Positions 1,827 to 61,256 of a stretch of DNA of 64,000 bases are shown here, in pieces; the stretch's first letter is position 1, and each line of letters opens with the position of its first letter. The DNA lies in contig CAYQTL010000004.1 in the NCBI GenBank assembly GCA_964420405.1, forward strand, positions 71,706 through 135,705. Reading direction: 5' to 3'. This stretch comes from an uncultured Thermoanaerobaculia bacterium. GTDB taxonomy: Bacteria > Acidobacteriota > Thermoanaerobaculia > Thermoanaerobaculales > Sulfomarinibacteraceae. The notes beneath the pieces are model-generated. The model saw only the letters and a program-made list of their open reading frames with translations, did no database searches and was not told where the DNA came from. The position numbers and the translations under genes are program-made.

Positions 1827-4800
1827 CTACCGCGTCTCGTACCCCGGGCGTTCCGGCGGCTGCGGCGGGGCCTCCTCGAGGCGCTCGAGGATCCACTCGA
1901 TCGCCCGCTCGAGCTGGGGGTCGCCGCCGTCGACCATCTGCGCCGGGTCATCGACGACCTCGATGTCGGGAGCCACGCCGACGCCTTCCACCGCCCACTC
2001 GCCCTCGGTGGTGTAGAACGCGAACGTCGGCACGGTGACAACTCCGCCGTCGACCAGCGGAGGCACGCCGGAGATGCCGATCAGGCCGCCCCAGGTGCGG
2101 GTACCGATGAGCGGCCCCAGCCCGGCCTGCCGGAAGTACCAGGGGAACAGATCGCCGCCCGAGCCCGACCAGCCGTTGATCAGCATCGCCTGCGGGCCGT
2201 CGTGGGCGACCGGCGGTGACTGCCAGTCCCTCGGCCCGCGCACCGCCCAGTAGTTCAGCGGCTCCCGGGCGAGCAGCTCGACGAACCGGTCGGGGATCTG
2301 GCCGCCGTTGTTGAACCGCTCGTCGACGATGACGCCGTCCTTGTGGATCTGGGCACGGTACATCCGAAACAGCTCGTCCTGGCCGTCGATGCCGGTGGAC
2401 GGGACGTAGACGTAGCCGACCCGACCGTCGGTGGCCTCCTCGACCATCCGGCGCTTGGCCTCGATCCACTCGAGGTTGCGCAGCCTCGCCTCGTCGTCGA
2501 GGGTCTCGACCAGCACCTCGCGCGCGCCGTCAGTCGACGGCCGGTCGTTGACCGTCAGCGCGACGGTCTGCCCGGCCAACCCCTGGAACGCCGCCCACGG
2601 GTCCTTCGACGGGTCGACCGGGACGCCGTTGACCGCCAGCACCCAGTCGCCCTCGGACACCTCCACGCCGGGCTGGTCGAGTGGCGAGCGCACCTCGCTG
2701 TCCCACGGCGCGCCGCGAACGATGCGGGCGATCCGGTAGGCGCCGTCGGCGAGCTCCCAGTCGACGCCGAGCAGGCCGACCGAGCGCCGCGGCGCCTGCT
2801 CGAGGTCGCCCCCGCCACGGTAGGCGTGGGACGCGTTGAGCTCCCCGATCAGCTCGCCGAGGAGGAAGTTCAGGTCCCAGCGGGTGACGACGTCGTCGAG
2901 CAGCGCGGCGTAGCGCTCGCCGACGGCCTGCCAGTCGACGCCGTGGAGGTTCGGGTCGTAGAAGTAGTCGCGCTGCAGACGCCACGCCTCGCGGAAGATC
3001 TGGCGCCACTCGGCCGGCGGATCGACCGTCGTCTCCAGCCCGTCGAGGTCGAGGGGCTCCTCGAGGCTCTGATCCGCGGCCACGTCCACGATCGCCCAGC
3101 TGCCGCCGGCCGCCACCAGCAGGTGCTCGCCGTCGGAGCTCGGGTCGTAGTCGTCGACGTCCGCGAGGATCTGCTGCTCCTCGCGCTCCTCGAGGTCCCA
3201 CAACGCCAACGGCGTGTCCTCGTCGTCGGCACCGGTGTTCGGCAGACGGCGGTACAGCACCTTGCCCGAGACGGCCGCGAGGTCGGTGTACCGGCCGGGA
3301 TCCAGCGGCAGGCGGACCGCGCGCCGCTCGAATCCCCCCAGGTCGATCGCGACGGGCGGGACCTCGTCGTCGGCGCCGTTCCCGTCCGTCGGGTCGCCAC
3401 CCTCGTCGTCGGCGTCGCCCTCCCCGTCGTCGTCGGCGCCGTCCGCCGTCTCCTCGTCGTTGCGGGGCGCCAGCGGAGACGGGACGTCACTCCGCAGCGG
3501 GACCGCCATCACGAGGGTCGGGTTGGCGTACACCCAGGTGTTGTCGAAGGGGCCGTACAACGCGTCGAAGTGCTGCGCCGAGAGGTAGTACAGGTACTCG
3601 CCGGCGGGGTCGAACACCGGCTGCGACGCGTCGTAGAAGCCCGACGTGACGCGGTGGAGCCCGCCGTCCGAGGTGTCGTAGAGGAACACCGCGTCGAGCT
3701 GGGTCTCGACGACCTTCGAGTACGCCAGCCAGCGGCTGTCGGGCGACCACGCGAGATGGAAGCGCTCCAGCGACGGGTGGTTCATCCACCAGGTGGAGTC
3801 CACCTCGACGACGGTCCCGGCGCTCACGTCCACCATGCGCACGGTCAGCGTGCTGTCGATGAAGGCGAGCCGGGTGCTGTCGGGAGACCACACCGGCGGG
3901 TACCGGAAGCCGCGGCCGATGGCGGTGACGGTGCGTTCCTCGCCGGAGCCGTCGGCCGGCCGCACAACCAGCTCGTACTCGCCCGAGCGGTCCGAGAAGA
4001 AGGCCACGGTCGTCCCGTCGGGCGACCACGCCGGGTAGCGCTCCGCGACCCCCGGCGACCGCGTCAGGTTGCGGGTGACGCCGTGCTCGGCCGGGACCGT
4101 GAACACCTCGCCGCGGGCCTCGAACACCGCCCGCCTGCCGGACGGGAACACGTCGCCCCAGGCGACGTCGGAGCCGACCGGCTCGGCCCGGGGCAACAGC
4201 GTCGCCCGGTCCGTGACGACGTCGACCTCGACCTCGCGCGAAGCCTCGGTCTCGAGATCGAGCAGGTACAGCCGGCCGCCGTTCTCGAACACGATCTCGT
4301 CGGGACCGATCGACGGGAAGCGGACGTCGAAGTCCTCGAACCGCGTCACCTGGCGGAGCTCGTCGGTCGCCAGGTCGTGGGCCCACAGGTTGGAGCGCAT
4401 GCTCTCGTCGCGGTCGGACAGGAAGTAGACGGTGTCGCCGTGCCACATCGGCTGGCCGTCGTTGGCGGGGTGCTCGGTGAGCCGTCGCGAGGTCAGATCC
4501 TCCAGGTCGAACAGCCAGATGTCGGGCGCCATCCCGCCCCGGTACCGCTTCCAGGTCCGGAAGTCGCGGCTCAACGGCGTGTAGGCGATCCTCCGGCCGT
4601 CCGGCGACAGGCTCCCGAACTCGCCGTAGGGGACCGGCAGCACCGCGGGCAGGCCGCCCTCGGCCGACAGCCGGTACAGCTGCCGGAAGCGCTGCTTGCC
4701 CGACGCCATCCCGGAGGCGAGCAGGATCGAGCGGCCGTCGGGGTACCAGTCGAGCATCCGGTCGCCGTCGGGATGGTGGGTCAGCCGCCGCGGCACGCCA

Positions 4801-6474: not shown

Positions 6475-9114
6475 ATGCTGCACGCCGCCCGGGCCGTCGC
6501 GTCGATCGCGCTCGCCTCGACCTGGCTGGTCGCCGGCGCCGCCACGGCTCTCGAGCCGCCCACCCCGGAGCAGCTCGAGCGGTATCGCCGTGACGGGTCG
6601 CTCGCGAGACGCGCCGCGGCCGCCGCCACCTGGGGCAACCACCTCGTCGCACCCGCCCTCGCGGCCCGGCTCCCATCCGGCGCCGGGCGCAAGGCCCAGC
6701 CCGATCTCCCCGGCGTGCTGCCGAGCAGCGGCAGCCGGCACACGTTCGCGCTGCTGATCTCGTTCGCCGACCAACCGGGCTTCACCGACCCCACGGTGGT
6801 CGACGACGCGCTGTTCGGCGCCGGCGACCCGGACGGGTTCCCGTACGAGAGCCTGCGGGGGTTCTACCTGCGCTCCTCCTACGGCCTGCTCGACCTCGGT
6901 GGCTCGACCCTCGGGTGGTACCAGGCTCCCTACCCCCGCGACCAGGTCCAGGAGACGACCGCCGGGCGCGAGGCACTGATCGTCGAGGCGATCCGGCACT
7001 TCGACGACGCCGGCCACGACTTCGCCCGCTACGACAACGACGGCGACGGCGCGATCGACTACTTCCTGGTCATCTGGACGGGTCCCCACGGGGAGTGGGC
7101 GGAGTTCTGGTGGGGCTACCTGACGAGCGTGCAGCCCTCCAACCCCTTCCGGGTCGACGGCAAGCGGCTGTCGCTGTACTCCTGGCAGTGGGAGGCGTGG
7201 GACTGGCCCGGGACGTTCTCCCCGGGAGTCACGATCCACGAGACCGGCCACGCCCTCGGCCTGCCCGACTACTACGACTACGACGACACCGTCGGACCGC
7301 GGGGCGGCGTCGGCGGGCTCGACCAGATGGCCGGCAACTGGGGCGACCACAACGCGTTCAGCAAGTGGATGCTGGGCTGGGTCGACCCGATCCGGATCCA
7401 CGCTGCCCTGCACGACGTCACCGTCGCGCCCCTCGACCTCGAGCCGGACGCCGTCGTGGTGATGCACGGCGATCCGCCGGCCGACCCCTTTCGGGAGTAC
7501 TTCCTCGTGGAGCACCGGCGCCGCGGCGGCAACGACACGGGGTTCCCAGCCGACGGGCTGCTGATCTGGCACGTCGACGCCCGGACCTCGCCGAGCGGCG
7601 CGTTCCTGTACGACAACTCCTACACCGAGCACAAGCTCCTCCGCCTGATGGAGGCCGACGGGCTCGAGGAGATCGAGCAGGGCGGCCTCGCCAACGCCGG
7701 CGACTTCTACCGCGACGGCGATCTCTTCGGAACCGACACCACGCCGAGCTCCCACCGGTACGACGGCGCGCCCACCAACGTCGAGCTGTCCGAGATCGAG
7801 ACCACGGCCGGCGGGATGGCGTTCGAGGCGTGGCTCGGGTCGGGCTGCGCGATCTTCTGCGACGCCTCCATGCCCGAGACCGCGTGGCCGGGAGGTCCGG
7901 TGCCCTTCGAGATGAGCTTCTCGCTGGAGCTCTGCGGCGGGACCGCGGTCACGGTCGCCCAGGACTTCGGAGACGGCACGCCCGCGGGGGCGGCCGATTC
8001 GAGGCACGTCTACCGGCACCCCGGAACCTACGACTGGTCGCTGGACCTGACGTCGGGCGAGGCCTGGTGCGGCCGCAGCGGCTCGATTCTGGTGTGCGAG
8101 GACCCACGCTGCTGGTCGTGGTCGGAGAAGGCGCCGATGGCGAGGGGTCGCTACTTCCACACCCTGGCCGGCCTGCAGGACGGGACCGCGCTGGCGGTGG
8201 GCGACGGGTCGCCGGAGCGGTACCTTCCGTCCGCGAACGCCTGGTCCCCGACCGCGCCCATGAGCCTGCGGTACCTCGATCTCCGCGCGGTCACGTTGCC
8301 GGACGGGCGCGTGCTGGCAGCCGGCCCGACGCCGCTCGGAGGCTCCGGCGCAGAGCTGTACGACCCCGTTCTCGACCGCTGGTCGGTCACCGGCGGGCCG
8401 CTGCACGGTCGGGTTTCTGGGGGTCTCGCGGTGCTGGCCGACGGCCGTGTCCTCGCCGCCGGCGGGTTCGCGCCCACCACCGGGCAGGCCGTCCTCGAGA
8501 CCGAGCTGTACGACCCCGCGACCGGCGCGTGGAACGACGGCGGCCCGCTGTCCTCCGGCGTCGACGTCGCGGCCCTGACGCCCCTCGACGACGGCGGCGC
8601 CCTGCTCACCGGCGGCACGACCGCGGCACGTTTCGAACCGGCCACCGGCTCGTGGAGACAGCTCCGGGACCTGGCCTTCGAGCGCGTCTACCACGCCGCC
8701 GCACGGCTCCCGGACGGGCGGGTGATGCTCCTCGGAGGGTTCGAGACGACGTGGGTGATGGTGTTCGACCCCGCCACCGAGCGCTGGAGCATCGGCGGTC
8801 GGCTCGGAAGCACCAGGGTCGCACCCTCCGCGGTCCCGCTGTCCACCGGCGAGGTGCTCGTCAGCGGCGGCTTCGACAGCCAGGGCACGGTGCTCGCGAC
8901 CTCCGAGCTGTGGAACCCGGCCACCGTCACGTGGTCCGCGGCGGGCACGATGGGCGAGCGACGTGCCGCCCACGCCGCGGTGCTGCTGCCGGACGGCTCG
9001 ATCCTGGTCGGCGGCGGCCTGCGCTCGGTCCTCGACGGGCTCGAGACGACCGACACCACCGAGCGGTACGCCCCGCCGCCGGCACCCCCGCGGCGACCGT
9101 CCGGACGCCACTGA
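6475..9114 (+). CDS. Secreted M6-family (immune inhibitor A-like) zinc metalloprotease with a PKD-like domain and C-terminal Kelch-type beta-propeller
   Basis: HExxH motif in HETGHALGLPDYYD. Start moved to ATG 6475 (GGAGGG 8 nt upstream; signal peptide MLHAARAVASIALASTWLVAGAATA). PKD-like segment DFGDGT...HVYRHPGTYDW. Repeated LPDGRVL..GG...ELYDP..W Kelch-like units. Confidence 0.85.
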   Translation: MLHAARAVASIALASTWLVAGAATALEPPTPEQLERYRRDGSLARRAAAAATWGNHLVAPALAARLPSGAGRKAQPDLPGVLPSSGSRHTFALLISFADQPGFTDPTVVDDALFGAGDPDGFPYESLRGFYLRSSYGLLDLGGSTLGWYQAPYPRDQVQETTAGREALIVEAIRHFDDAGHDFARYDNDGDGAIDYFLVIWTGPHGEWAEFWWGYLTSVQPSNPFRVDGKRLSLYSWQWEAWDWPGTFSPGVTIHETGHALGLPDYYDYDDTVGPRGGVGGLDQMAGNWGDHNAFSKWMLGWVDPIRIHAALHDVTVAPLDLEPDAVVVMHGDPPADPFREYFLVEHRRRGGNDTGFPADGLLIWHVDARTSPSGAFLYDNSYTEHKLLRLMEADGLEEIEQGGLANAGDFYRDGDLFGTDTTPSSHRYDGAPTNVELSEIETTAGGMAFEAWLGSGCAIFCDASMPETAWPGGPVPFEMSFSLELCGGTAVTVAQDFGDGTPAGAADSRHVYRHPGTYDWSLDLTSGEAWCGRSGSILVCEDPRCWSWSEKAPMARGRYFHTLAGLQDGTALAVGDGSPERYLPSANAWSPTAPMSLRYLDLRAVTLPDGRVLAAGPTPLGGSGAELYDPVLDRWSVTGGPLHGRVSGGLAVLADGRVLAAGGFAPTTGQAVLETELYDPATGAWNDGGPLSSGVDVAALTPLDDGGALLTGGTTAARFEPATGSWRQLRDLAFERVYHAAARLPDGRVMLLGGFETTWVMVFDPATERWSIGGRLGSTRVAPSAVPLSTGEVLVSGGFDSQGTVLATSELWNPATVTWSAAGTMGERRAAHAAVLLPDGSILVGGGLRSVLDGLETTDTTERYAPPPAPPRRPSGRH

Positions 9115-9800: not shown

Positions 9801-10058
9801 AGCGCCGACCGTCCGGCGTCGCGAACCCGATCCCGTCGGAGGCAGCCGCACCAGCCGGCGGACCGTCCCGCTGAGCGACCAGGAGGCGTGCCGCGCACCG
9901 TCCTCTCCGCCCGGCGGCCCCCCGGGGCGCCGCGTACGGCAGCACCCGCGAACCCTCCTGCCGGGGATGGCGCACGGCCCGCCCGTTGGTGGAGCTCTTC
10001 GCGTCTTGTACGTATGCCTGGTTTATGCCATCATGATTCCGGGATGCCACGCGCGAGG

Positions 10059-10094
10059 GCACGACCGAGCGCACGACCGAAAGCACGACCGAGA
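10059..10094 (+). repeat. Three tandem 12-bp direct repeats (gcacgaccgagc gcacgaccgaaa gcacgaccgaga), immediately 5' of an SD and ATG 10104
   Basis: Read directly. It is preceded by an unusually AT-richer stretch (cttgtacgtatgcctggtttatgccatcatgattcc) that could hold a promoter. Confidence 0.6.
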
Positions 10095-10103
10095 GGAGCC
10101 ACC

Positions 10104-13733: not shown

Positions 13734-14840
13734 TCACCCGCCCTTCCCGGCCGCGCCGGAGTACACCCGCGCGAGACGTGGGGCGAGCCGGCCGCAGGTG
13801 AAGCGGTCGCGGACGAACCGGCGGCCCGACTCGCCCAGAGCCCGGGCGGCGCCGGCGTCGGCAGCGAGGCGCGACACGGCTTCCGCCATCGCCGCCACAT
13901 CGCCGGCTGCCACCCGCACGCACCCGGCACCGGACCACTCGCGGGTGCCGCCCACGTCGGCCACCACCACCGGGGTGCCCTCCGCCAGGGCCTCCACTCC
14001 CAGGATGCCGAACGGCTCCTGCCACACGGCCGGGAACAGCAGCATCCGCGACCCGCGCAGCAGGCGGCGGAGCCCCTCGCCGTCGAGCCAGCCGAGCACT
14101 TCGGCGCCGGCGAGCCCATCGGCCGCAGGACCCTCCCCCGCAACCCGCAGCGGCATCGGCCGGCCCGCTTCCCGCCACGCGCGCCAGCCGTCGGCGATCC
14201 CCTTGTGGGACACGAGCCGGCCGCCCATCGCGACCCCCTCGCCGGAGCTCGTCCGTGGCGGCCCGGCCGCGGTCCAGGGCGGGATGACCTCGGCGCCCTC
14301 CAGCCCGACGGCCGCGAGCTCGTCCGCCATGAACCGCGACAGCACCACCAGCCGCGCTCCGCGGAGAGCGTCCCTGCGCGATCGCGTCAGCGCCAGCGTC
14401 CGCTCGAGGTAGTCCCCGTCGGGAAGGCACCGGCGGCACGGCTCCTCGGCCATCGGCACGGCGCACCGGCGTCCGTCCGGAAGGGTCTTGCCGACCGCGG
14501 GGCACAGCACCCGATGGTCCTGGACGGTGGCGACCGCCCGGCCCGTCGCCACCGCGCGCCGGATCGCAACCGGGTTCATGACGTTCTGAATGTGGACCAG
14601 GTCCGCCGAGGTCACGAGCCCGTCCAGGCCCGCCAGGCGGGCAGAGCTCGCGACCTTGGACCCGAGCCCCCGCATCGTGTGCACCGTCACTCCGCGGGGC
14701 GGTCCGACGCCGTTCTCCGCCCGTCCACAGGCCACCGCCACCTCGTGACCCTCCGCCACCGCCCACGCCATCACCTGGCGCAGGTGCAGGTCGGCGCCGC
14801 CCCGGCGGGAGAGGCGGTCGGTGAGGTACAGCAGCCGCAC
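13734..14840 (-). CDS. Glycosyltransferase family 4 (GT-B fold)
   Basis: 368 aa. N-terminus MRLLYLTDRLSRRGGADLHL. C-terminal EPFGILGVEALAEGTPVV (E-x7-E-type motif region). Confidence 0.8.
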   Translation of the reverse strand: MRLLYLTDRLSRRGGADLHLRQVMAWAVAEGHEVAVACGRAENGVGPPRGVTVHTMRGLGSKVASSARLAGLDGLVTSADLVHIQNVMNPVAIRRAVATGRAVATVQDHRVLCPAVGKTLPDGRRCAVPMAEEPCRRCLPDGDYLERTLALTRSRRDALRGARLVVLSRFMADELAAVGLEGAEVIPPWTAAGPPRTSSGEGVAMGGRLVSHKGIADGWRAWREAGRPMPLRVAGEGPAADGLAGAEVLGWLDGEGLRRLLRGSRMLLFPAVWQEPFGILGVEALAEGTPVVVADVGGTREWSGAGCVRVAAGDVAAMAEAVSRLAADAGAARALGESGRRFVRDRFTCGRLAPRLARVYSGAAGKGG

Positions 14841-14862
14841 GGAAACCCGTCTCCGACGGCCG

Positions 14863-15276
14863 TCAGCCGTAGCGCTGGAGAGTCCGCCCCGTCGGCACGT
14901 ACACGGCCGCCGGCTCGGACCCTCCCGTCGTCCTCACCTCGACCGTCGCGCGCTGGTACAGCCCTTCGGCGACACCCTCGTAGGCGTCCGTCCGTCGCCA
15001 GTCGTCGGCGTCGAGACCGCGGTACAGACGCCCCTCGACCACCGATCCCGCCTGCCGCACCAGCACCGGCCACGCGAGCCGATCGAGGGTCGCCACCGCC
15101 CACCCCCGCAGTGACGCCGGCTCGGACGCCACCGGGTGCTCGAGCAGCCGCTCGAGGAACGCGGTGTCGAGCAGCGAGCCGTAGGTGAACAGCGGCAGCG
15201 GAGATCCCCCGCCGGGGTCCACCCCCGGCGACGCCGGCAACAGCCCCCGCGCCTCGTCGTCCGCCATCGGACCCAT
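14863..15276 (-). CDS. Gamma-glutamylcyclotransferase / AIG2-like family protein
   Basis: Track ORF 14863..15405, trimmed to ATG 15276. Contains the LFTYGSLLD motif and GRLY...D..E segment. An alternative ATG is at 15267. Confidence 0.7.
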   Translation of the reverse strand: MGPMADDEARGLLPASPGVDPGGGSPLPLFTYGSLLDTAFLERLLEHPVASEPASLRGWAVATLDRLAWPVLVRQAGSVVEGRLYRGLDADDWRRTDAYEGVAEGLYQRATVEVRTTGGSEPAAVYVPTGRTLQRYG

Positions 15277-15361: not shown

Positions 15362-15480
15362 GCAGGCCGTCGCGGGCTTCCGTAGCGCCACCTTCCAGGT
15401 GGCATGCCTCGCAGGCCGCCGCAAGCTCTCGTAGCGCCACCTTCCAGGTGGCATGCCTCGCAGGCCGTCGCGGGCTCCCG
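15362..15480. repeat. 49-bp tandem repeat, about 2.4 copies. Each full unit contains the perfect hairpin gccacct-tcc-aggtggc followed by the palindrome ggcatgcc.
   Basis: Units at 15362-15410, 15411-15459 and 15460-15480, read directly. The 29-nt core gtagcgccaccttccaggtggcatgcctc is identical in both full units. The 12-mer ccggctggcacc flanks the array at 15322-15333 and 15514-15525. Confidence 0.8.
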
Positions 15481-22823: not shown

Positions 22824-22859
22824 GAAGACCCAGATCCCCCCTGCGCCGTACGACCGTCC

Positions 22860-22889
22860 GATCCCGTTCCCGATCCCGATCCCGTTCCC
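22860..22889. repeat. HAE single arm: gatccc gttccc gatccc gatccc gttccc
   Basis: Read directly. It lies between convergent gene ends (22823 and 22998). Confidence 0.8.
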
Positions 22890-22997
22890 GATGGGCGTGA
22901 CGGTCGCGACCTCGGCCCGAAGCGGGAGTCGTACCCCGCCAAGCGCATCGAGGTGCTCGCGCGGTGGGTCGGCGAACGGTGCGCCTCACCCCTCCCC

Positions 22998-25584: not shown

Positions 25585-25621
25585 CGCGGCTCCGCACCCA
25601 CTCCGCGCGATCGACCCATCC

Positions 25622-38282: not shown

Positions 38283-38297
38283 GCATGCTCCGCATCC

Positions 38298-38321
38298 GAT
38301 CCCGATCCCGTTCCCGTTCCC
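38298..38321. repeat. HAE single arm: gatccc gatccc gttccc gttccc
   Basis: Read directly, with boundaries CATCCGATCCCGAT and TCCCGACG. It lies inside the plus-strand ABC operon, between the permease and adaptor genes. Confidence 0.8.
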
Positions 38322-38385
38322 GACGGGTCCGCCCGCGCGGTCCGGAACCCCTCCACGACGACACCGACCACGAGGACCACCTGAC

Positions 38386-39941: not shown

Positions 39942-40222
39942 GACCCCGATCCCGTTCCCGATCCCGATCCCGACGCACGGTCTCGAGAGGTCGGAACACG
40001 GCATCCGCAGGGGGCGGAGGCACGCAGAGGCGAGGCAGTTGCGGGCGTTGGAGCCCTCTCACCGCCTCGTATCGGCCGATCCCCCGAGGACCGGCTCCTC
40101 TCGCCGCGAAAGGCGGACGAGAGGCTGCCGGACGAGGCCGCCCTGCTTCCCCTGCGTCCTCTGTGCCTTCGACTTCCGTCTCGCCCCGGTCATGAACCCC
40201 ATCGTCGGGATCGGTCGGATCG
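39942..40222. repeat. HAE full copy (about 281 bp). Left arm gacccc gatccc gttccc gatccc gatccc; right arm degenerate (gggatc ggtcgg atcg).
   Basis: Read directly. The interior shares gaggctgccg (40121-40130) and the block pair ggaggcac.cagagg / cctctgtgcc with the 46357 copy. Confidence 0.7.
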
Positions 40223-41359: not shown

Positions 41360-41517
41360 CGGTTCCTCCCGAGGGGCGGCCGACGACGGTGGAGGGTCCC
41401 GCCGTCGCCGGCGGGCCCGTCGCGCTCAGCTCACGCGCACGCCCGCCGGCCGAAGGTCAGCCGATAGTGGATCCAGGCGATCGCGGAGCTCATGAGCTCA
41501 TCGTACCGCACTTCCTC

Positions 41518-41553
41518 CCTCGTCCGTTTCCGCGTCCGTGTCCGAGCCCGAGC
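41518..41553. repeat. Hexamer array, CGTCCG flavour: ctcgtc cgtttc cgcgtc cgtgtc cgagcc cgagca
   Basis: Read directly. It contains gcgtccgtgtccg, which is also found in reverse complement at about 60086-60100 and, one base shorter (cgtccgtgtccg), near 60349-60360. Confidence 0.6.
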
Positions 41554-41669
41554 AGCGAGGGGATCAGCGGCAGGGGCAGATGGCGGCGACGGAGATCAGC
41601 GGCGGTGGGCAGACTCATCGACGGCATCGCCGGGGCTGCACGGCAGGAGGTGCGTGCTGGAGATCGAGG

Positions 41670-42113
41670 TCAGCTCGACTCCGCCCGCAGCGGGTGGTGC
41701 CACCGCAGGCCGGGGAACCGGTCGAAGTCGGAGTCGGTGCTCACCAGGGTGCAGCCGTGCTCGATCGCGACCGCGGCGTGCTGGGCGTCGGCGACGAGCT
41801 TCCCCGTCGCACCGGCAGTCCGGCATAGCCGTTCGAAGATCTCCAGATGGCGCGGACCCGGCGACACGATCCGGGCGGTGGGGCGGGCCGTGAGCTCGGC
41901 CACGAAGGCGAACACCTCGGCGAGCGTCGACGGGCGCCGGAAGACCTTCGGGTTGGTGGCGATCCGGACCACGCCGCCGAGCACCAGAGTCGAGAGCGCG
42001 AACGGCGACGGCGACGTCGCCAGCCCGGTGACCCACCGGGCGTATGCCGGGTGCTCGTCGCAGGCGTCGATCCGGTGGGCGTACACGAGGACGCTCACGT
42101 CCGGCAGGATCAC
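41670..42113 (-). CDS. vapC: PIN-domain toxin of a type II toxin-antitoxin system
   Basis: 3' part of track ORF 41670..42371. GTG 42113 forms a GTGA overlap with the antitoxin stop. Sequence VILPDVSVLVYAHR...DAQHAAVAIEHGCTLVSTDSDFDRF is typical of PIN. Confidence 0.8.
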   Translation of the reverse strand: MILPDVSVLVYAHRIDACDEHPAYARWVTGLATSPSPFALSTLVLGGVVRIATNPKVFRRPSTLAEVFAFVAELTARPTARIVSPGPRHLEIFERLCRTAGATGKLVADAQHAAVAIEHGCTLVSTDSDFDRFPGLRWHHPLRAESS

Positions 42114-42367
42114 CGCCGCTCCCCGTACCGCGCCTCGTCCTCCGCGACCATCAGCTCCCGGGGCCGGTCGAGATCGACCCCTTCGCGGAGCCCGTCGCCA
42201 CCGACCGTGACGAGGCGGAACGGCCGATCCGGTTCCGGCTGCTGCTCGCGCTTGAGCGCGTCGTCCAACACCTTCGCGATGAACCCGCTGAGGCTGGCGC
42301 CCTCCGCCGCAGCCCGCCGCTTCGCCGCCTCGAGCAGATGTTCGTCGAGCGAGATCGTCGTTCTCAT
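42110..42367 (-). CDS. vapB: Type II antitoxin (VapB-like, RHH/MazE-type N-terminus)
   Basis: Track ORF 42110..42481, trimmed to ATG 42367 (MRTTISLDEHLLEAAKRRAAAEGASLSGFIAKVLDDAL). 4-nt overlap with vapC. Confidence 0.7.
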   Translation of the reverse strand: MRTTISLDEHLLEAAKRRAAAEGASLSGFIAKVLDDALKREQQPEPDRPFRLVTVGGDGLREGVDLDRPRELMVAEDEARYGERR

Positions 42368-42779
42368 GCATACGATCATACCATCATGATGCACTGATGC
42401 CACATTTGAGGTGCTCGGAGGCCGAGAGTGCGCTGCGGGCGGTGGAAGGTCTCCGTCCGTCGCCGGACGAGCCGTCAGCATGGGTGCCGACTCGGCCCGG
42501 TCTCATCGAGGTCAACTTCATCGGCATGGACCCCGCGCTCGGCGACGCCGGCGACACCTGCGTGCTCGAGGACGTCGAGCTCCCCCTGCTGGTCTTCGGG
42601 TAGCTCGCCCTGGTCCGCCCGGGCAGGACGCTGGAGGTCGACGGTGCGCAGGTGCCGCTGCCGCGGCCCGCCGGTCTGGCGCTGGAGAAGCTCCTCACCG
42701 ACCGGTCGGGCGTCCAGGGTCGTCCGACGACGGGCGCCGCGACGGGTGGCATACGCAGCACATCCGCTACGATGGGCCG

Positions 42780-43238: not shown

Positions 43239-43266
43239 CCACCGAAGGAGCGCGTTCTCCCCATCC

Positions 43267-43319
43267 GATCCCGATACCCGCACGAGACGAGAAGCACCGT
43301 CAGGATCGGAGAGGCGGGT
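43267..43319. repeat. Short degenerate HAE-like hairpin (gatccc gatacc ... aggatc ggagag) between convergent gene ends
   Basis: Read directly. It carries the left boundary CATCCGATCCCGAT. Confidence 0.4.
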
Positions 43320-43328
43320 GGATGCGGT

Positions 43329-44123
43329 TCACGACTGCACCCGCCGCACCCAGGCGACGATCATCTCGGCGAGCTCCCGCGGGCGCTCGACGACGACCGC
43401 GTGACCGGCGCCCTCGAGGACCCGGAACGTGGCACCGGGGATCGTCTCGGCGAGCGCCCGGCACCGCTCCCGCGGAATGAACCCGTCCTCGCCGGCCGCC
43501 GCCACGAGAGTCGGGCACCGGATCGCGCCGAGCTCGCCGCCGAGCTCGAAGCTCTCGGCCGAGTCGAGCAGGCCGATCAGGCCCTCGAACCAGGACGGGG
43601 GCAGCTTCGAGATCTGCCGCCGGCGCTCGGCCCGCTCCTCGCCGTGGGACTCCAGGTACGCCCGCGAGTACACCACCGGCTCGAGGACGTCCGACAGGTG
43701 GCCCCGGTCGTCGCTCTCCAGGGAGTCGACGCACGCCTGCCGCCAGCGGGCCACCTCGTCCGCCATCGACGCCGTGAACCCGTCGGCGGACGCGATCGAG
43801 ACCAGCGACCGCACCCGTCCTGGCCTCCGGGCGGCCAGCAACGCGCCGACCGCCCCGCCGAAGGAGGTCCCGACGACGTGGACCGAGCCCTCGCCGACGG
43901 TATCGAGCACCGCGGCCACGTCAGGCACGTGGTCGCCGACATCGGCCGGTGCCGGCCCACCTGTCAGCAGCTGCCCGCGCAGGTCGCACCGGATCACCCG
44001 CAGGTGCGGCCGCAGCCCCGCCGCCACCGGCTCCCAGCTCACCGCCGACATGGCGATGCCGTTGAGCAGCAGCACCGGCGGGCCGTCCGGGTTGCCGTCG
44101 ACCAGGTGGAACAGCCCGGCCAT
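43329..44123 (-). CDS. Alpha/beta hydrolase
   Basis: 3' part of track ORF 43329..44909, starting at ATG 44123. Nucleophile elbow GTSFGG. C-terminal GAGHAVVVERP. Confidence 0.8.
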   Translation of the reverse strand: MAGLFHLVDGNPDGPPVLLLNGIAMSAVSWEPVAAGLRPHLRVIRCDLRGQLLTGGPAPADVGDHVPDVAAVLDTVGEGSVHVVGTSFGGAVGALLAARRPGRVRSLVSIASADGFTASMADEVARWRQACVDSLESDDRGHLSDVLEPVVYSRAYLESHGEERAERRRQISKLPPSWFEGLIGLLDSAESFELGGELGAIRCPTLVAAAGEDGFIPRERCRALAETIPGATFRVLEGAGHAVVVERPRELAEMIVAWVRRVQS

Positions 44124-45007
44124 CAGTCCTCCGGCGGGGTCCAGTCGAAGTCGAGCCGCTTGGTGCGGGCGAACTCGAGGATCATGCCGAAGAAGGTCCT
44201 CGGCTGCTCGATGTAGACGACGTGGCCACTGCCCGGGATCGTCTCCCACCGGGTGCTCGGGAGGATGTCGAGGATCTTGCGCTGCTGCCACAGCGGGATC
44301 GCGCGATCCTGCTCGCCCGCGACCATCAGCGTCGGGGTCCGGATCGCACGGTACCCCGGCATGTTCTCCTCGAGGGCGTCGAAGAACGGGTCCTGCGCCT
44401 CGGTCAGCCGGATCAGGCAGTGGCGATGGTCGATGTAGCGGTCGTAGAACCGTTGCCGCATGGCGTCGAGCTGGGCGGGGTCGAGCCGGGACACGAACGC
44501 CTCGCCGAAGATCTTCTCGTACATGTAGTGGGTGTACAGGTCGAACGCCTCCGGGCTGCCGCGGTAGAAGCGCAGCGACAGGGCCTCGTACATCTCGAAC
44601 AGGGCCTCGTGGCTGAGGAGGATCCCCGACAGGACCAGGGTGTGGAGACGGTGCTGGTACAGCCGCGCGAAGTCGAGCGCGATGAACCCGCCGTAGGAGA
44701 TCCCCATCAGGTGGACCTTCGCGACCCCGGCCTCGTCCATGATCAGGTCGAGGTAGCGCGCGAACTCGGGGATCGAGTACGGGATGTCGTCCTTCGACGA
44801 GTCGCCCTGGCCGAGGTAGTCGTACAGGATGACGTCGTGGCTCGGCGCCAGCAGCGGCAGGAACCCGTACCACGCCTTGGTGTGCATGGCGAGCCCGTTG
44901 AGCAGGCACACCGCTTCACGGTCGCCTGTGCCGTGATACTCCCACCACACCCTCTGCCCGTCTCCGACGTCGAGGTGCCCGCTGCGATCCGGCTGGATGT
45001 CTGGCAT
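44123..45007 (-). CDS. Alpha/beta hydrolase
   Basis: 294 aa. Nucleophile elbow GISYGG. C-terminal GSGHVVYIEQP. 1-nt overlap with the next hydrolase gene. Confidence 0.8.
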   Translation of the reverse strand: MPDIQPDRSGHLDVGDGQRVWWEYHGTGDREAVCLLNGLAMHTKAWYGFLPLLAPSHDVILYDYLGQGDSSKDDIPYSIPEFARYLDLIMDEAGVAKVHLMGISYGGFIALDFARLYQHRLHTLVLSGILLSHEALFEMYEALSLRFYRGSPEAFDLYTHYMYEKIFGEAFVSRLDPAQLDAMRQRFYDRYIDHRHCLIRLTEAQDPFFDALEENMPGYRAIRTPTLMVAGEQDRAIPLWQQRKILDILPSTRWETIPGSGHVVYIEQPRTFFGMILEFARTKRLDFDWTPPED

Positions 45008-45018
45008 GTGGTCGCTCC

Positions 45019-45110
45019 GATCCCATTCCCGATCCCGCTCCCGATCCCGATCCCGATCCCGATGCCCGCCCCGTCGGGATCGGGAGCGGGACCGGGATCG
45101 GAATCGGAGC
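45019..45110. repeat. Arms-only HAE: an imperfect 92-bp hairpin with 8 left units (gatccc attccc gatccc gctccc gatccc gatccc gatccc gatgcc), a 9-nt spacer, and 6 right units (gggatc gggagc gggacc gggatc ggaatc ggagc)
   Basis: Read directly. It fills the whole gap between the thiolase stop (45110) and the hydrolase start (45007). Confidence 0.85.
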
Positions 45111-46315: not shown

Positions 46316-46356
46316 TCTTCCCTCCATCTCGGTCCCCTTGTTGTCGTCGCCCTTCC

Positions 46357-46633
46357 GATCCCGTTCCCGATCCCCTTCCCGATCCCGACGAAACCCCTCG
46401 AATCGCGTGCGACGGCCGACGACGGAGGCACAGAGACACGGCGAAGCGCGTCAGATGCGGGCGGTGACGACCTCTCGCCGGGTCGCATCACCCGATCCTC
46501 GTGGACCCGCGCGTCGAGCCAGGAGAGACACCCCCGAGGCTGCCGAGTGCCCTCCTCTGAACCTCTGTGGCTCCACCTCGTTCCGGTCACGATCCACGTC
46601 AACGGGATCTGGATCGGGATCGGGATCGGATCG
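46357..46633. repeat. HAE full copy (277 bp). Left arm gatccc gttccc gatccc cttccc gatccc; right arm gggatc tggatc gggatc gggatc.
   Basis: Read directly. The interior shares the exact blocks cacagagacacg (46429-46440) and gtcgcatcac (46482-46491) with the 50189 copy, and gaggctgccg (46536-46545) with the 39942 copy. Internal complementarity between ggaggcacagag (46424-46435) and cctctgtggctcc (46562-46574). Confidence 0.85.
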
Positions 46634-46640
46634 GACGGCG

Positions 46641-50168: not shown

Positions 50169-50188
50169 CGTTCCTCCGTCCGAGCCCT

Positions 50189-50492
50189 GTTTCCGCTCCC
50201 GATCCCGTTCCCGTTCCCGACGGGAGCTCTCGAGTCGCGCGCGCCGGTCAACCACAGAGACACGAAGGCACGGAGGAGAGCTTCCGATGGCAGACCCGGA
50301 GTAACCTCACCGTGTCGCATCACACTCTCGTCGAGACTCGAGCTCACGCGTCCCGACGGACCCGCCGATGGCCGGTCGACGCTATCCTCGCTGCTCGCTC
50401 TCCGTGCCTCCGTTGCTCCGTGGTTCCACCCCATCCCGGTCCCGAGCCGCGTCATCGGGACCGGGATCGGGATCGGGATCGGGATCGGAACG
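50189..50492. repeat. HAE full copy (304 bp). Left arm gtttcc gctccc gatccc gttccc gttccc; right arm gggacc gggatc gggatc gggatc gggatc ggaacg.
   Basis: Read directly. Shared blocks cacagagacacg (50253-50264) and gtcgcatcac (50314-50323). Internal complementarity between gaaggcacggaggagagc (50264-50281) and gctctccgtgcctcc (50397-50411). Confidence 0.85.
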
Positions 50493-50526
50493 GACGTCCC
50501 GGCGGCGGGTGATCGGTGTCGCGCAC

Positions 50527-51309: not shown

Positions 51310-51440
51310 CACTCTCCCCCTCGTCGTGGTGTCTCGCAGCGGTCGGCGCACACGCCGCGGGGCTCGTACCCCGCGGCGCCGCGTCCCGTGTCGGTGCGCG
51401 ATCGGGCGCGATGGCGGACCACTTCCGTCACGGTCATCCG

Positions 51441-51498
51441 CCCCGTGCCGGTCCGCGCCGTCGGTGACGGACGCGGACGCTGGCACGGACGCGGAGAC
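51441..51498. repeat. Imperfect hairpin built from CGTCCG-flavour hexamers: ccccgtgccggtccgcgccgtc / ggtgac ggacgc ggacgc tggcac ggacgc ggagac
   Basis: Read directly. It lies between the TonB-dependent receptor stop (51510) and the SDR start (51309). Confidence 0.6.
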
Positions 51499-51509
51499 CA
51501 CATCACTGT

Positions 51510-57372: not shown

Positions 57373-57499
57373 GCTGTACCCTGTCGCTGACGATTCCGCT
57401 GACGCTGACCCTGTCGCTGACGTCGTCCCTGTCACTGCCCCTGCTCCTGACTTCGAGCCGTCGACCATCGGGAACGGGATCGGGATCGGGATCGGATCC
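57373..57499. repeat. Composite hexamer array: about 14 units of CTGNCG flavour (ccctgtcgctgacg occurs twice, 30 bp apart), then gggaac gggatc gggatc gggatc ggatcc
   Basis: Read directly. It lies between convergent gene ends (57322 and 57606). Confidence 0.7.
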
Positions 57500-57605
57500 G
57501 CGACACCCACCACTCACTGCGGCAGGCGCAGCAATCAGCGGCAGCAGCAGCGACAGCGCCAGGACCGGCACATAGGCGGTCGGTCGGGGTAACCCGCGTC
57601 CCTGG

Positions 57606-59879
57606 TCAGCGCCGGCGCCTGGGCGGCTTCGCGCCGCGGTCGCCGGTGCGCCCGCGGGGCGGCTTCTTCGGACGCGCCTTGCGGTCGGCGCCGCTCGGGC
57701 GGCGCCGCTCGGGCGGCGGTCCAGCGGGCACCAGCTCGACCTGGTGGGTGATCGGGTCCACCCGCACCACCTGCACCCGGATCGGATCGCCCAGCCGCCA
57801 CACGCGGCCGGAACGTTCCCCCACCAGGCGGTGATGGTCGGGGTCGTGCTCGTAGTGGTCGTCGAGCAGCTCGGAGACGTGCACCAGGCCGTCGACGAAC
57901 ACGCCGGCCAGCTCCACGAACAGGCCGAACGGCGTCGCCCCGGTGACGAACCCGTCGAAGGTCTCACCGACCCGGCCGGCGAGCCACGCCACCGCCTTCC
58001 AGCGGACCGCCGTGCGCTCGGCGGACTCGGCCCGCCGCTCCGACTCCGAGCACGACTGCCCGAGCCGCTCGAACCGCTCGTGCAGCTGCGCCGCCTCCTC
58101 CTCCGGAACCGCGCGGCCCTCCTCCAGCAGCCGCAGCAGCATGCGGTGGACGACCAGGTCCGGGTAGCGCCGGATCGGCGACGTGAAGTGGACGTACTCG
58201 CGGGTCGCGAGGGCGTAGTGGCCGCGCGGCTCGGGCGAGTACAGCGCCTGAGCGAGCGAGCGCAGCACCAGGGTCGAGACCAGCCGCTCCTCTGGACGGC
58301 CGGCCACCTCGTCGAGCAGTGCCTGCAGGTCCCGCGGCGCGGGCCGGCCCTCCTCGCGCCGGAGCCGGAAGCCGAGCCGCTCGACCGTGTCGGCCAACGC
58401 CTCGACCCGCTGCGGGTCGGGATCGTCGTGGACCCGGTGCAACGCCGGCTGGCCTGCCTTCATCAGCAGGCGCGCCACCGCCGTGTTGCCCGCCACCATC
58501 AGCTCCTCGATCAGCCTGTGGGCGCGATGGCGTGCCGACGGCTGGATCGACTCCACCCGGCCCTCGGGGTCGAGCAGCACCACCGGCTCGGCGAGGTCGA
58601 AGTCGAGGCTGCCCCGCTGCCGGCGCGCCTTCCCCAGCCGGTCGGCGGCCTCCACCAGCTGCTCGAGCGAGTCGGCGAACGGGGCGGTCTCCGCCGGCCA
58701 CTCCGCCCGCGGCCGTTCGATCCATTCGAACACCTCGTCGTAGGTGCACCTCCGCCGCGACCGGATCACCGAGCGGAACGCACCCTGACGGACGATCCCG
58801 CCGTCGGGCGTGACCTCGAACCGGACGGTGAACGCCAGCCGATCCTCGTCAGGCCGCAGCGAGCACAGGTCGCCAGACAGCCGCTCGGGCAGCATCGGCA
58901 CGACCCGACCCGGCAGGTAGACGCTGGTCCCCCGCCGGCGCGCCTCGCGGTCGATCGGCGAGCCGAGCTCGACGAATCGGGCGACGTCGGCGATGTGGAC
59001 CTCCACCGCGATCCGGCCGCCCGACCCGGCACGCGCGTTGACCGCGTCGTCGAAGTCCCGCGCCGCCACCGGGTCGATGGTGATCACCGGCCGGTCGCGA
59101 AGGTCCTTGCGACCCTCCAGGTCGCCATCGGTCACCGCGAGGGGAAACGCTCGCGCCGCGATCTCGGCCTCCGGCGGCATCTCCACCGGGATCCGGTACA
59201 GCCGAAGCACCGCCCGCTCGTCCACGTCCGGCTCGCCGAACGCGCCGAGCACCTCCACCACGGTGCCGCTCGCACGGCCACGGGCGGTCGCCGTCGTGTC
59301 CAGGGCGACCACCACCACCTCGCCGTGACGCGGCTCCCGCTCGGCGGCGACCCTGGTCGGCAGCACCGCCACCTTCAGCCTCGGGTCGAGCGGCCGCACC
59401 ATCGGCCGCGGGCCGTCGACCGTCCACACCCCGACGACCTCCTCGCGGCGGCGCTCGAGCACCTTGACGACCACGCCCTCGCGCTTGCGCTGATCCCGCG
59501 CCTGTTGGCGGGGCGTCTCCAGGCGCACCTGCACCAGGTCGCCGTCGAACGCGCCCCGCAGGCCGCGCCGGCCGATCCAGATCGGCGCGCCGGGCCCCTC
59601 GGGGTCGACCGTCCCGTTGCCGTCCGCCGTCTGCCGAAGGCGGCCCGTCACCAGGTCCGACGCCTCCGCCGCCACGTACCGCTTGCCCCGCGCGACCACC
59701 ACGTGGCCGTCCCGTTCCAGTCGCTTCACGACCGGTCGCAGCAGCCGTCTGGCCTCGGAGCGGTCGACCCCGCTCTCACCCGCCAGGTGCGCCACCAGCA
59801 TCGTCAGCGACATCCCCTTGCGGCCCCGCCGCCGGATCAGCTGCAGGATCTCCCGGTCCAGGTCGCCTTCTCGCATCAT
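57606..59879 (-). CDS. rnr: Ribonuclease R (RNB-family 3'-5' exoribonuclease with a C-terminal S1 domain and basic tail)
   Basis: Track ORF 57606..60194, trimmed to ATG 59879 (MMREGDLDREILQLI). RNB motifs ITIDPVAARDFDDAV, TSVYLPGRVVPMLPERLS and HFTSPIRRYPDLVVHR. S1 region GFVTGATPFGLFVEL. Confidence 0.9.
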   Translation of the reverse strand: MMREGDLDREILQLIRRRGRKGMSLTMLVAHLAGESGVDRSEARRLLRPVVKRLERDGHVVVARGKRYVAAEASDLVTGRLRQTADGNGTVDPEGPGAPIWIGRRGLRGAFDGDLVQVRLETPRQQARDQRKREGVVVKVLERRREEVVGVWTVDGPRPMVRPLDPRLKVAVLPTRVAAEREPRHGEVVVVALDTTATARGRASGTVVEVLGAFGEPDVDERAVLRLYRIPVEMPPEAEIAARAFPLAVTDGDLEGRKDLRDRPVITIDPVAARDFDDAVNARAGSGGRIAVEVHIADVARFVELGSPIDREARRRGTSVYLPGRVVPMLPERLSGDLCSLRPDEDRLAFTVRFEVTPDGGIVRQGAFRSVIRSRRRCTYDEVFEWIERPRAEWPAETAPFADSLEQLVEAADRLGKARRQRGSLDFDLAEPVVLLDPEGRVESIQPSARHRAHRLIEELMVAGNTAVARLLMKAGQPALHRVHDDPDPQRVEALADTVERLGFRLRREEGRPAPRDLQALLDEVAGRPEERLVSTLVLRSLAQALYSPEPRGHYALATREYVHFTSPIRRYPDLVVHRMLLRLLEEGRAVPEEEAAQLHERFERLGQSCSESERRAESAERTAVRWKAVAWLAGRVGETFDGFVTGATPFGLFVELAGVFVDGLVHVSELLDDHYEHDPDHHRLVGERSGRVWRLGDPIRVQVVRVDPITHQVELVPAGPPPERRRPSGADRKARPKKPPRGRTGDRGAKPPRRRR

Positions 59880-59907
59880 GGCTCGCAGTCTACGCTTCCT
59901 TCCATCC

Positions 59908-60106
59908 GATCCCGATCCCGATCCCGATCCCGACGAGATGATCCGCCATCTCCGGGCCGACGGGGGCCGCTGGCTCTCACCCAGCTTCCCACGGCCGCCG
60001 AAGCTGCGACATGGGTGCAGGACCCAACACGGCTGGGGGCCTCGCAGCGTGATCGCCGTCCCGCCACGCTGCCACCGGGCGCGGGTACGGACACGGACGC
60101 GGGAGA
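59908..60106. repeat. HAE-like copy (about 199 bp). Left arm (gatccc)x4; right arm of the other flavour (gggtac ggacac ggacgc gggaga).
   Basis: Read directly, with boundaries CATCCGATCCCGAT and TCCCGACG. It lies between the rnr start and tRNA-Leu. Confidence 0.65.
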
Positions 60107-60164
60107 ACGCCGTCGCGGGTTGACACTCGAAGTCCCGGAACCTACACTCCGCCCTGCGCCGCGT

Positions 60165-60253
<89 letters not shown>

Positions 60254-60321
60254 GCACCCCCTGACCATCGGAGGCCGTCACGGCCCCTTTTTCGTGTCCG
60301 GCACCTGGCGTGCCGCGGCCC

Positions 60322-60448
60322 CGCTTCCCGCGTCCGCGTCCGTGCCCCCGTCCGTGTCCGATGCGACGAGCGCAGCGGCAGCGGCATCCGATTCCCGCGC
60401 GTCGCGGCGGTGGCGGCGACTTTCGGGCACGGACGCGGACGCGAGCTC
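60322..60448. repeat. CGTCCG-flavour element: an 18-bp perfect inverted repeat gcgtccgcgtccgtgccc (60330-60347) / gggcacggacgcggacgc (60425-60442) enclosing 77 nt
   Basis: Read directly. It starts about 70 nt downstream of tRNA-Leu. Confidence 0.8.
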
Positions 60449-61051: not shown

Positions 61052-61149
61052 CACCCGTCAACGGAACTCCGCCGACGCCGCCTCAGAGAACCGCCCCGGC
61101 CCTTCCACCGCCGCGACCACCCCCTCTGACACGGACGGCACCGCCCGGC

Positions 61150-61256
61150 GCTGCACGCTGACACTGTCGTTGCCCCTGTCGCTGGGCAATGCCGCTGTCG
61201 CTGATCCCACCGCCGCCATCGGGTCCAGCACCCGGATCGGGGCAGGGATGGGAGGC
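61150..61256. repeat. Degenerate CTGNCG-flavour hexamer array (…cgctga cactgt cgttgc ccctgt cgctgg … ccgctg tcgctg atccca) followed by a weak G-rich arm (gggtcc … cggatc ggggca gggatg)
   Basis: Read directly. It shares ccctgtcgctg with the 57373 array. The boundaries are fuzzy. Confidence 0.4.

Follow-up and report, generated by a model that had tools for sequence, protein, structure and literature searches.

Inverted arrays of GATCCC-type hexamers in an uncultured Thermoanaerobaculia bacterium: a probable lineage-specific family of palindromic intergenic repeats

Tandem repeats of 6-7 nt fill the intergenic DNA of several large-genome bacteria, their origin and function being unexplained. 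The short tandemly repeated repetitive (STRR) heptamers of cyanobacteria were reportedly described by Mazel and colleagues in 1990. In Xanthomonas (unit GGGAATC) and Nostoc (unit GGGGA(C/T)T), about 90% of the G-rich repeats lie outside genes, typically where the neighbouring genes are co-oriented or convergent and rarely where they diverge, within tens of nucleotides of the end of an open reading frame (ORF); each genome has 70-75 inverted pairs that are capable of forming stem-loops (Rehm et al. 2015, PMC4692102). These repeats are transcribed, differ in length between close species, are unlinked to insertion sequences and have no explained function; most lie between the same genes in two species, and a quadruplex role has been proposed for the Xanthomonas GGGAATC repeat (PMC4692102). 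TAACTGA heptamers occur as direct repeats in Beggiatoaceae, cyanobacteria and Bacteroidetes, just upstream of start codons and with one indirect case in 170 sets (MacGregor 2015, PMC4679880). Here we analyse a 277-bp intergenic feature at positions 46357-46633 of a 64-kb stretch (hereafter the window) of contig CAYQTL010000004.1 from an uncultured Thermoanaerobaculia bacterium. We read it, with a probability of roughly 55%, as one copy of a lineage-specific, REP/REPIN- or ERIC-like palindromic intergenic repeat family with microsatellite arms; on this reading the family is a hexamer variant of the long intergenic 6-7-nt repeats known from Xanthomonas (GGGAATC) and cyanobacteria (heptamers).

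Arrays of (GATCCC/GTTCCC)n and their complement were found at 11-12 sites in the window, intergenic throughout. GATCCCGWTCCC occurs 27 times as compared with 0.07 expected from shuffled sequence, the array-plus-boundary pattern CCCGWTCCCGWTCCCGACG (up to one mismatch) 12 times as compared with none in the shuffles, and 11 of 11 sites are intergenic, although intergenic DNA makes up only 14.4% of the window (P ~5e-10). Nearly all of the 43 matches to the two-unit motif CCCG[AT]TCCCG are inside listed sites (41), the others being a mini intergenic copy at 9823-9841 and one coding match. The original prediction, made from the letters of the window alone, had claimed at least 11 such intergenic sites and had argued that they are not microsatellite noise; the comparison with shuffled sequence, in which the motifs are hundreds of times rarer, and the strictly intergenic placement bear out both statements, and the sequence at 46357-46633 is as it was first noted.

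The basic module is an arm of 30-45 nt consisting of an outer boundary C-N-TCC, 3-8 units of GATCCC or GTTCCC (more rarely GCTCCC or GGTCCC) and an inner boundary GA(C/T)G; among the few arms that were counted, the number of units ranges from 1 to 8 and is most commonly 4-6. Apart from GATC, an arm with its CNTCC and GACG boundaries holds no internal palindrome. The unit and both boundaries are common to up to 17 arms in the window, single arms included. The 14-mer CATCCGATCCCGAT at the outer boundary is present four times (25617, 38293, 43262, 59903) as compared with 0.0003 expected, which confirms the identical outer boundary proposed for four sites, although the coordinates given for it were one base off. 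An inner boundary had been proposed for seven sites, and TCCCGACG indeed closes nine arms (seven on the plus and two on the minus strand), but it is not specific alone because it occurs 11 further times elsewhere.

Three forms of arm can be distinguished: single arms; abutting inverted pairs, at 45017-45110 and, degenerate, at 43262-43322; and inverted pairs 215-235 nt apart, with about 220 nt of filler, at 25617, 39942, 46354 and 50175. The 5-6 singlets and the 6 doublets are all intergenic. The terminal arms of all four full-length inverted pairs are 28-39 nt long and 74-91% complementary, and in six of six GATCCC pairs the C-rich arm is the 5' one on both strands; the C-rich arm also comes first in almost all G/C-asymmetric pairs of the sibling families described below. 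Co-oriented operon genes flank five of the sites and convergent genes four, and the other two are in divergent regions; the arm mostly starts 0-36 nt past a stop codon. The sites listed by the original prediction are confirmed, but a single arm at 57467-57495 and the two-unit copy at 9823-9841 had been omitted, and 59908-60106, taken for a 199-bp variant copy, is instead one GATCCC arm beside a hairpin of CGCGTC/GGACGC units. The sites, together with two sibling hairpins, are as follows.

46354-46390, unstranded: left arm of the focal element, TCC-(GATCCC GTTCCC GATCCC CTTCCC GATCCC)-GACG, C-rich on the plus strand and G-rich on the minus (sense) strand
46391-46600, unstranded: interior of the focal element, homologous to the interiors 39976-40202 and 50223-50452, quasi-palindromic
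46601-46634, unstranded: right arm of the focal element, GGGATC-type array, 85-86% complementary to the left arm
50175-50494, unstranded: full copy 2, in a minus-strand operon, flanked by the genes for KASIII and a short-chain dehydrogenase; 50179-50525 is missing in the close relative (contig L100)
39942-40222, unstranded: full copy 3, between convergent genes; missing in L100
25617-25903, unstranded: GATCCC inverted pair separating two FtsX-type permease genes; its 220-nt interior is unrelated to the others
45017-45110, unstranded: arms-only inverted pair, a 92-nt hairpin that begins at the thiolase stop codon; missing in L100
43262-43322, unstranded: short degenerate inverted pair between convergent genes; not in L100
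5175-5222, plus strand: single arm, C-rich on the plus strand, in a divergent intergenic region
22858-22892, plus strand: single arm, 36 nt past the stop codon of a plus-strand gene of a convergent pair
38293-38325, plus strand: single arm of four units, 15 nt past a stop codon, inside a plus-strand operon
57467-57495, minus strand: single arm, C-rich on the minus strand, enclosed by the (CTGACG)n...(CAGCGG)n hairpin 57381-57562
59903-59935, plus strand: single arm CATCC(GATCCC)4GACG, immediately upstream of the RNase R gene
9823-9841, plus strand: two-unit mini copy AACCCGATCCCGTCGG, 23 nt past a stop codon
60318-60445, unstranded: sibling hairpin (CGCGTC/CGTGCC)n...(GGCACG/GACGCG)n, downstream of tRNA-Leu
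51436-51500, unstranded: sibling (GGACGC)-type hairpin, conserved in L100

The longest ORF of RNase R (57606-60194, minus strand) reads through the element at 59903-60106; since homologues are 753-757 aa long, the true start is near 59879 and the element lies upstream of the gene. Several other elements of this high-GC window are spanned by spurious ORFs, such as 44123-45109, in which the arrays are rendered as RSRSRS/DRDRDR.

Four full elements with shared interiors had been proposed. Three of the interiors (39942, 46357 and 50189) are homologous over about 210 nt, with 62-67% identity, alignment z of 5.6-9.9 and nhmmer E <1e-50, whereas that of 25622 is unrelated to them (z at most 2.4). The three homologous interiors indicate that sequence has been copied between loci. 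Each is quasi-palindromic and contains, as a second tier, inverted 7-8-mers such as AACCACAGAGACACGAAGGCACGGAG / CTCCGTGCCTCCGTTGCTCCGTGGTT (CACAGAG.../...CTCTGTG). The sharing of interior blocks therefore stands for these three, but of the blocks originally cited GAGGCTGCCG occurs eight times in the window and is not diagnostic, and 'GGAGGCAC.AGAG' has no literal match. A shared 'TCGCATC / CATCGC' core motif was also considered and rejected because it is no more frequent than expected. A profile search with the interior returned the three window copies and no others, and a metagenome scan for a left arm, 210-240 nt and a right arm gave 21 matches, all of them chance matches in coding DNA.

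A close relative allowed the sites to be compared at orthologous positions. It is represented by contigs from one set of samples (L100/L101, L125 and L130), with 42.5 kb syntenic with the window at 87-92% nucleotide identity and a divergence of 0.19 at 4-fold sites. Its two independent assemblies agree to 99.86% and without gap, and the differences from the window are thus not assembly artefacts. Nine GATCCC sites are comparable: three are shared, six are found only in the window and none only in the relative, a split that is improbable under symmetric loss (~0.03). The state of each site in the relative is as follows.

50189: empty; stop codon, two bases, ribosome-binding site
45019: empty
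39942: empty
43267: absent
25622 (L125): a 120-nt (CGCGTC)n/(GACGCG)n hairpin in its place
46357 (L100): a 55-nt mini-hairpin that retains the loop-proximal GACGTGGATCGTGAC of the full element
38298 (L100): two units as compared with four in the window
57467 (L130): three units as compared with four in the window
59908 (L130): a hairpin with complementary arms, (CGCGTC)n...(GGACGC)5, that corresponds to window 59936-60106; its flanks are identical and its interior is 75% identical

Complete elements of the window occupy junctions that are only 10 bp long in the relative, and the numbers of units at shared sites differ by 1-2. The mini-hairpin at 46357, since it retains GACGTGGATCGTGAC, is an internal-deletion derivative. 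At 59908 one GATCCC arm has been gained beside a hairpin of a different family, the window adding CGTC(GGGATC)4GG next to a degenerate remnant of the GGACGC arm, and both genomes have kept the CGCGTC hairpin at 51436. Mobile-DNA-like behaviour, as originally suggested, is thus seen in the presence/absence differences. The comparison of sequences shows that the family has multiplied in the window genome since the split from its ~90%-identity relative and has dispersed between loci; its new copies, which have no target-site duplication, sit in the few bases that separate a stop codon from the ribosome-binding site downstream, or where two convergent genes end. Once in place, the arrays gain and lose units, and each arm is homogenised individually, as by replication slippage.

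These differences would also be expected of a classical miniature inverted-repeat transposable element (MITE), which would have arisen from an insertion sequence by deletion and be mobilised by a transposase, encoded elsewhere, that binds the hexamer-array inverted termini. The terminal inverted repeats of 28-39 nt, the defined termini CNTCCGATCCC, the length of 280-350 bp and the non-coding sequence are all in line with such an element, but no target-site duplication is present at the three clean empty sites (50189, 45019 and 39942, at the junctions in L100), and within the window and the scanned loci the copies are only 62-67% identical, unlike a near-identical burst. Single arms and arms-only forms occur as often as full copies, the interior of 25622 bears no relation to the others, and the scan of window genes found none coding for a transposase, reverse transcriptase or nuclease. 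The MITE-like label given to the feature is hence unsupported in the sense of a classical MITE, which we regard as improbable.

The predicted RNA stems are very stable, with energies of -81 kcal/mol for the 92-nt pair 45017-45110 (sense strand), the base of which is predicted to pair with the GGAGC ribosome-binding site of the next gene, and of -152 to -196 kcal/mol for the full copies, whose long predicted fold has a z of -2.2 to -3.7. This fold, and the fact that three interiors are conserved enough to be aligned, could suggest a structured RNA, as had been proposed, with the interior encoding a non-coding RNA or riboregulator. RNAalifold on the three full copies, however, gave an unfavourable covariation term of +4 kcal/mol, with 19 of 84 pairs doubly changed and many pairs broken. 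Rfam at the gathering threshold returned only tRNA-Leu over the window, and relaxing the limit to an E of 5 added only microRNA hairpin models below threshold, in agreement with the earlier statement that no known Rfam family is involved. Neither a sigma-70-like promoter in the elements nor a U-tailed intrinsic terminator in the elements or the region was found, and at the orthologous sites of the close relative the interior is absent or replaced, the element missing from the same operon. The structured RNA is therefore unsupported, and we consider it extremely unlikely. For the five GATCCC elements between co-oriented genes, the sense strand folds better by 11-20 kcal/mol in every case; selection at the RNA level, assessed by this G.U asymmetry, was positive for these five elements but not across all families, and was dropped.

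The arms have potential for four-stranded structure. GGGATC repeated four times is a canonical G3N3 motif, most arms carry at least four G-tracts, GATCCC-family arrays account for 12 of the 20 predicted G3N1-7 x4 quadruplex motifs in the window and for 12 of the 14 intergenic ones, and their bias in position and gene orientation is like that reported for Xanthomonas (PMC4692102). The arrays might accordingly be regulatory repeats that form G-quadruplexes or i-motifs, in DNA or RNA, near gene ends, with the inverted arrangement being secondary. In pairs, however, the complementary arm competes, and as the C-rich arm comes first its complement is present before the G-rich arm is made, thus favouring the duplex over the quadruplex. 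Sibling units of the same architecture (CGCGTC, CTGACG, AGTTTTT, TCCAAAG) are incapable of forming quadruplexes, and the close relative has no arrays at six junctions of the same operons. We judge a quadruplex function to be quite unlikely.

The same polarity would suit a protein-binding platform, for example Rho loading on a C-rich, G-poor leading arm so that a two-sided terminator is formed, or a repeat-binding RNA- or DNA-binding protein. The C-rich arm comes first on both strands in all six GATCCC pairs and nearly all G/C-asymmetric sibling pairs, four sites are between convergent genes and the region has no U-tailed intrinsic terminators, but AT-rich sibling units are unsuited to Rho loading and two of the single arms are upstream, not downstream, of genes. 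This function appears very unlikely.

Among described systems, the GGGAATC repeats of Rehm et al. show the same tandem G3-plus-spacer units (here GGGATC/GGGAAC), intergenic position near ORF ends, scarcity between divergent genes, inverted pairs, length differences between close relatives and lack of a link to insertion sequences. They differ in having a unit of 7 nt rather than 6 and in phylum, whereas the present family has conserved array boundaries and, in some pairs, encloses a shared 210-nt interior. Our pairs are C-arm first, whereas theirs are called 'convergent', which probably means G-arm first; and theirs are mostly at the same genes across two species, whereas most sites here differ from the close relative. 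STRR and TAACTGA repeats are likewise abundant 7-nt intergenic tandem arrays with lineage-specific units and unexplained origin, and such heptamers are carried by the related contigs L103 and L129 (see below), but the TAACTGA sets are direct repeats upstream of starts, as opposed to an inverted pair that is typically downstream of a stop codon.

The palindromic families offer a second set of likenesses. As with REP, BIME and REPIN sequences, the arrays are extragenic, occur as singlets, inverted hairpin doublets and mosaic clusters at gene 3' ends and inside operons, show lineage-specific expansion and leave no target duplication, but a REP unit is an imperfect palindrome of 20-40 nt with a conserved GTAG, whereas the arm described here is a tandem array that does not fold on itself. 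ERIC/IRU and Correia elements share with the full copies the form of imperfect palindromes of 100-300 bp in transcribed intergenic regions, with length variants arising by internal deletion or insertion; they are, however, conserved in sequence (Correia with TA duplications), in contrast to the 62-67% identity, lack of duplications and microsatellite termini found here. The foldback elements of Drosophila and other eukaryotes also have long inverted termini built of short tandem repeats around a variable middle, but they are eukaryotic, far larger and associated with target duplications, and the analogy is structural only. The feature had been called apparently undescribed, which is only partly right: intergenic G-rich arrays of 6-7 nt, many in inverted pairs, have been published for Xanthomonas and Nostoc (PMC4692102), but our search of the literature found no paper on GATCCC arrays, the interior motifs or a 280-bp composite with a shared interior.

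GATCCC is one of several unit families with this architecture. In the window, (CGCGTC/CGTGTC)n with (GACGCG/GGCACG)n forms hairpins of the same build at 60318-60445, 51436-51500 and 41490-41560, and CGCGTC-type units are dominant in L102, L125 and L130. A third family, (CTGACG/CTGTCG)n with (CAGCGG/CAGCGA)n, is found at window 57381-57562 and 61130-61200, at 13315-13396 in L102 and at 20780-20850 in L129. The (CTGACG)-type arrays in L102 and L129 adjoin genes of the 23S-rRNA-intervening-sequence (four-helix-bundle) family; there are none in the window, and a tie to these genes was dropped. More distant relatives carry the same operon (L102, thiolase 85% identical; L103, 81%) or the transporter locus (L128 and L129, 76%), and at the same junctions they show the same hairpin architecture built from other 6-7-nt units.

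L102, units at operon junctions: (CGCGTC)n, (GAGTGAG)n, (CAGTGA)n
L103, units at operon junctions: (AGTTTTT)n/(AACTAAA)n, (CTGTTAG)n/(CTAAAAG)n, (CCCTCT)n/(GAGGGA)n

Hairpins of the (TCCAAAG)n type are also among the junction arrays of the relatives compared (L102, L103, L125 and L129). L129 (ENA ERZ25039603 contig_15125; 64% G+C) holds 23 non-overlapping heptamer arrays in 21 kb, and nearly every gene junction has an inverted pair built from its own AT-rich units; one of its genes, 14250-15062, has the same mosaic of 8-mer and 7-mer arrays on either side. Arrays in L103 and L102 begin at the stop codon and incorporate it. In many pairs the two arms are not perfectly complementary but differ at one fixed position in each unit, so that each arm is homogenised separately; this fits slippage, whereas copying from arm to arm would erase the mismatch.

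These observations raise the possibility of local microsatellite growth, in which the intercistronic hairpin of each junction was inflated by slippage in both arms with no copying between loci. The units do differ among junctions and genomes, down to the heptamer pair that changes at almost every junction of L129; arrays take in the stop codon, arms are homogenised separately, and relatives differ by one unit in length. Independent growth is nevertheless difficult to reconcile with 17 arms that share the unit and both boundaries, the four occurrences of the outer 14-mer, the three homologous interiors of ~210 nt, the complete elements at junctions of 10 bp in the relative, and the GATCCC arm beside a GGACGC arm with flanks unchanged, and we hold it to be unlikely.

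Beyond these loci, (GGGATC)n or (GGGAAC)n arrays, single or paired, are present in other Acidobacteriota and in Myxococcota assemblies among the matches listed, and a scan of the genome collection with the array-plus-boundary pattern gave at least 99 loci in many phyla, mostly single chance or coding matches. In L041, another Acidobacteriota assembly, (GGGATC/GGGAAC) arrays are in frame in two paralogous Ser/Thr kinase genes (4070-4100 and 6830-6870), between conserved kinase motifs and followed by (GACCTCAA)n, which looks like a coding use of the repeat. Downstream of RNase R in an 81%-identical relative (L131, 12255-12650) there are about three tandem copies of a ~130-bp unit, GGGATGCTGGCGCCACGAGGGGCG...GCCTGCCAGCAGG, and then two copies of another repeat with CCGCGGACTCCG.GAAT.ACGGGAG.

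The window itself has 72% G+C and an ordinary chromosomal gene set, including kinases, ABC/FtsX transporters, a fatty-acid/thiolase operon, RNase R and tRNA-Leu; the few best protein matches that are named belong to metagenome-assembled genomes of Acidobacteriota (Thermoanaerobaculales, Holophagae, 'Sulfomarinibacteraceae'). GATC as a methylation or restriction target was ruled out because its count equals the expected frequency. CTAG is nearly missing from the whole window (2 observed, 32 expected from trinucleotide frequencies). A VapBC-type toxin-antitoxin pair with a ribbon-helix-helix antitoxin and a PIN-domain toxin (41670-42379, minus strand) is kept in L100, and the 400-bp stretch flanking it (42380-42779) aligns poorly with L100. 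Two further repeats were noted: a 49-bp tandem repeat in a divergent intergenic region (15362-15480; 2.4 copies, 87% matches), each copy with a palindrome CGCCACCTTCCAGGTGGC, and 3.5 copies of the 12-mer CGAGAGCACGAC at 10054-10095, within an 853-bp gap between convergent genes in which no Pfam-recognisable ORF was found.

If the GATCCC elements are a REP- or ERIC-like palindromic family, they probably spread by copying and not by cut-and-paste, possibly through template switching where ribosome-binding sites offer GGAG/GGGA-like microhomology or, alternatively, through a trans-acting enzyme encoded outside the window. The elements would be co-transcribed with the flanking genes, and pairing of the 5' C-rich arm with the 3' G-rich arm would then give a long stem-loop that brings the ends of the insert together, which may be why the operon tolerates it. 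Likely side-effects, as for REP and ERIC, would be a barrier to 3' exonucleases and partial, possibly Rho-dependent, termination; at 45017-45110, occlusion of the ribosome-binding site may be added, relieved by the terminating ribosome.

Several points weigh against this palindromic repeat family. The folding advantage of the sense strand fades when all families and loci are pooled (~12 of 19), and RNAalifold on the three copies found no covariation backing any particular RNA fold. Copy number, identical copies and a mobilising gene were assessed inside the 64-kb window, and the metagenome scan and the fetched loci contained no further full copy. With all three full copies inside 10.5 kb and 33-38% divergence among them, the spread could be local and not very recent. 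In principle, the relative could have lost the element precisely at each of the six window-only sites. Separately, the polarity rule and the swap of one unit family for another at the same junction are left without an explanation.

We tentatively propose, as a less probable but broader account, that one unrecognised DNA-level process creates and spreads inverted microsatellite pairs at stop-proximal junctions, with neither transposase nor target duplication. Such a process, covering the siblings in related Acidobacteriota, might for example begin with template switching onto an array already present, primed by microhomology, after which each arm would change by slippage; it would have a built-in polarity that puts the C-rich arm 5' on both strands. 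The present material makes the question of origin testable, since it combines a genome pair close enough to show gains, changes in unit number, an internal deletion and an arm added beside another family; a conserved operon whose hairpins have the same architecture but different units in four or five lineages; and a polarity rule beyond the predictions of a simple hairpin model. Such elements also have practical consequences: assemblies break at them, gene callers are misled by them in high-GC genomes, and most of the predicted quadruplex motifs come from them. If the proposal is true, a single DNA-level process would also explain the 30-year-old STRR puzzle and the GGGAATC pairs of Xanthomonas.

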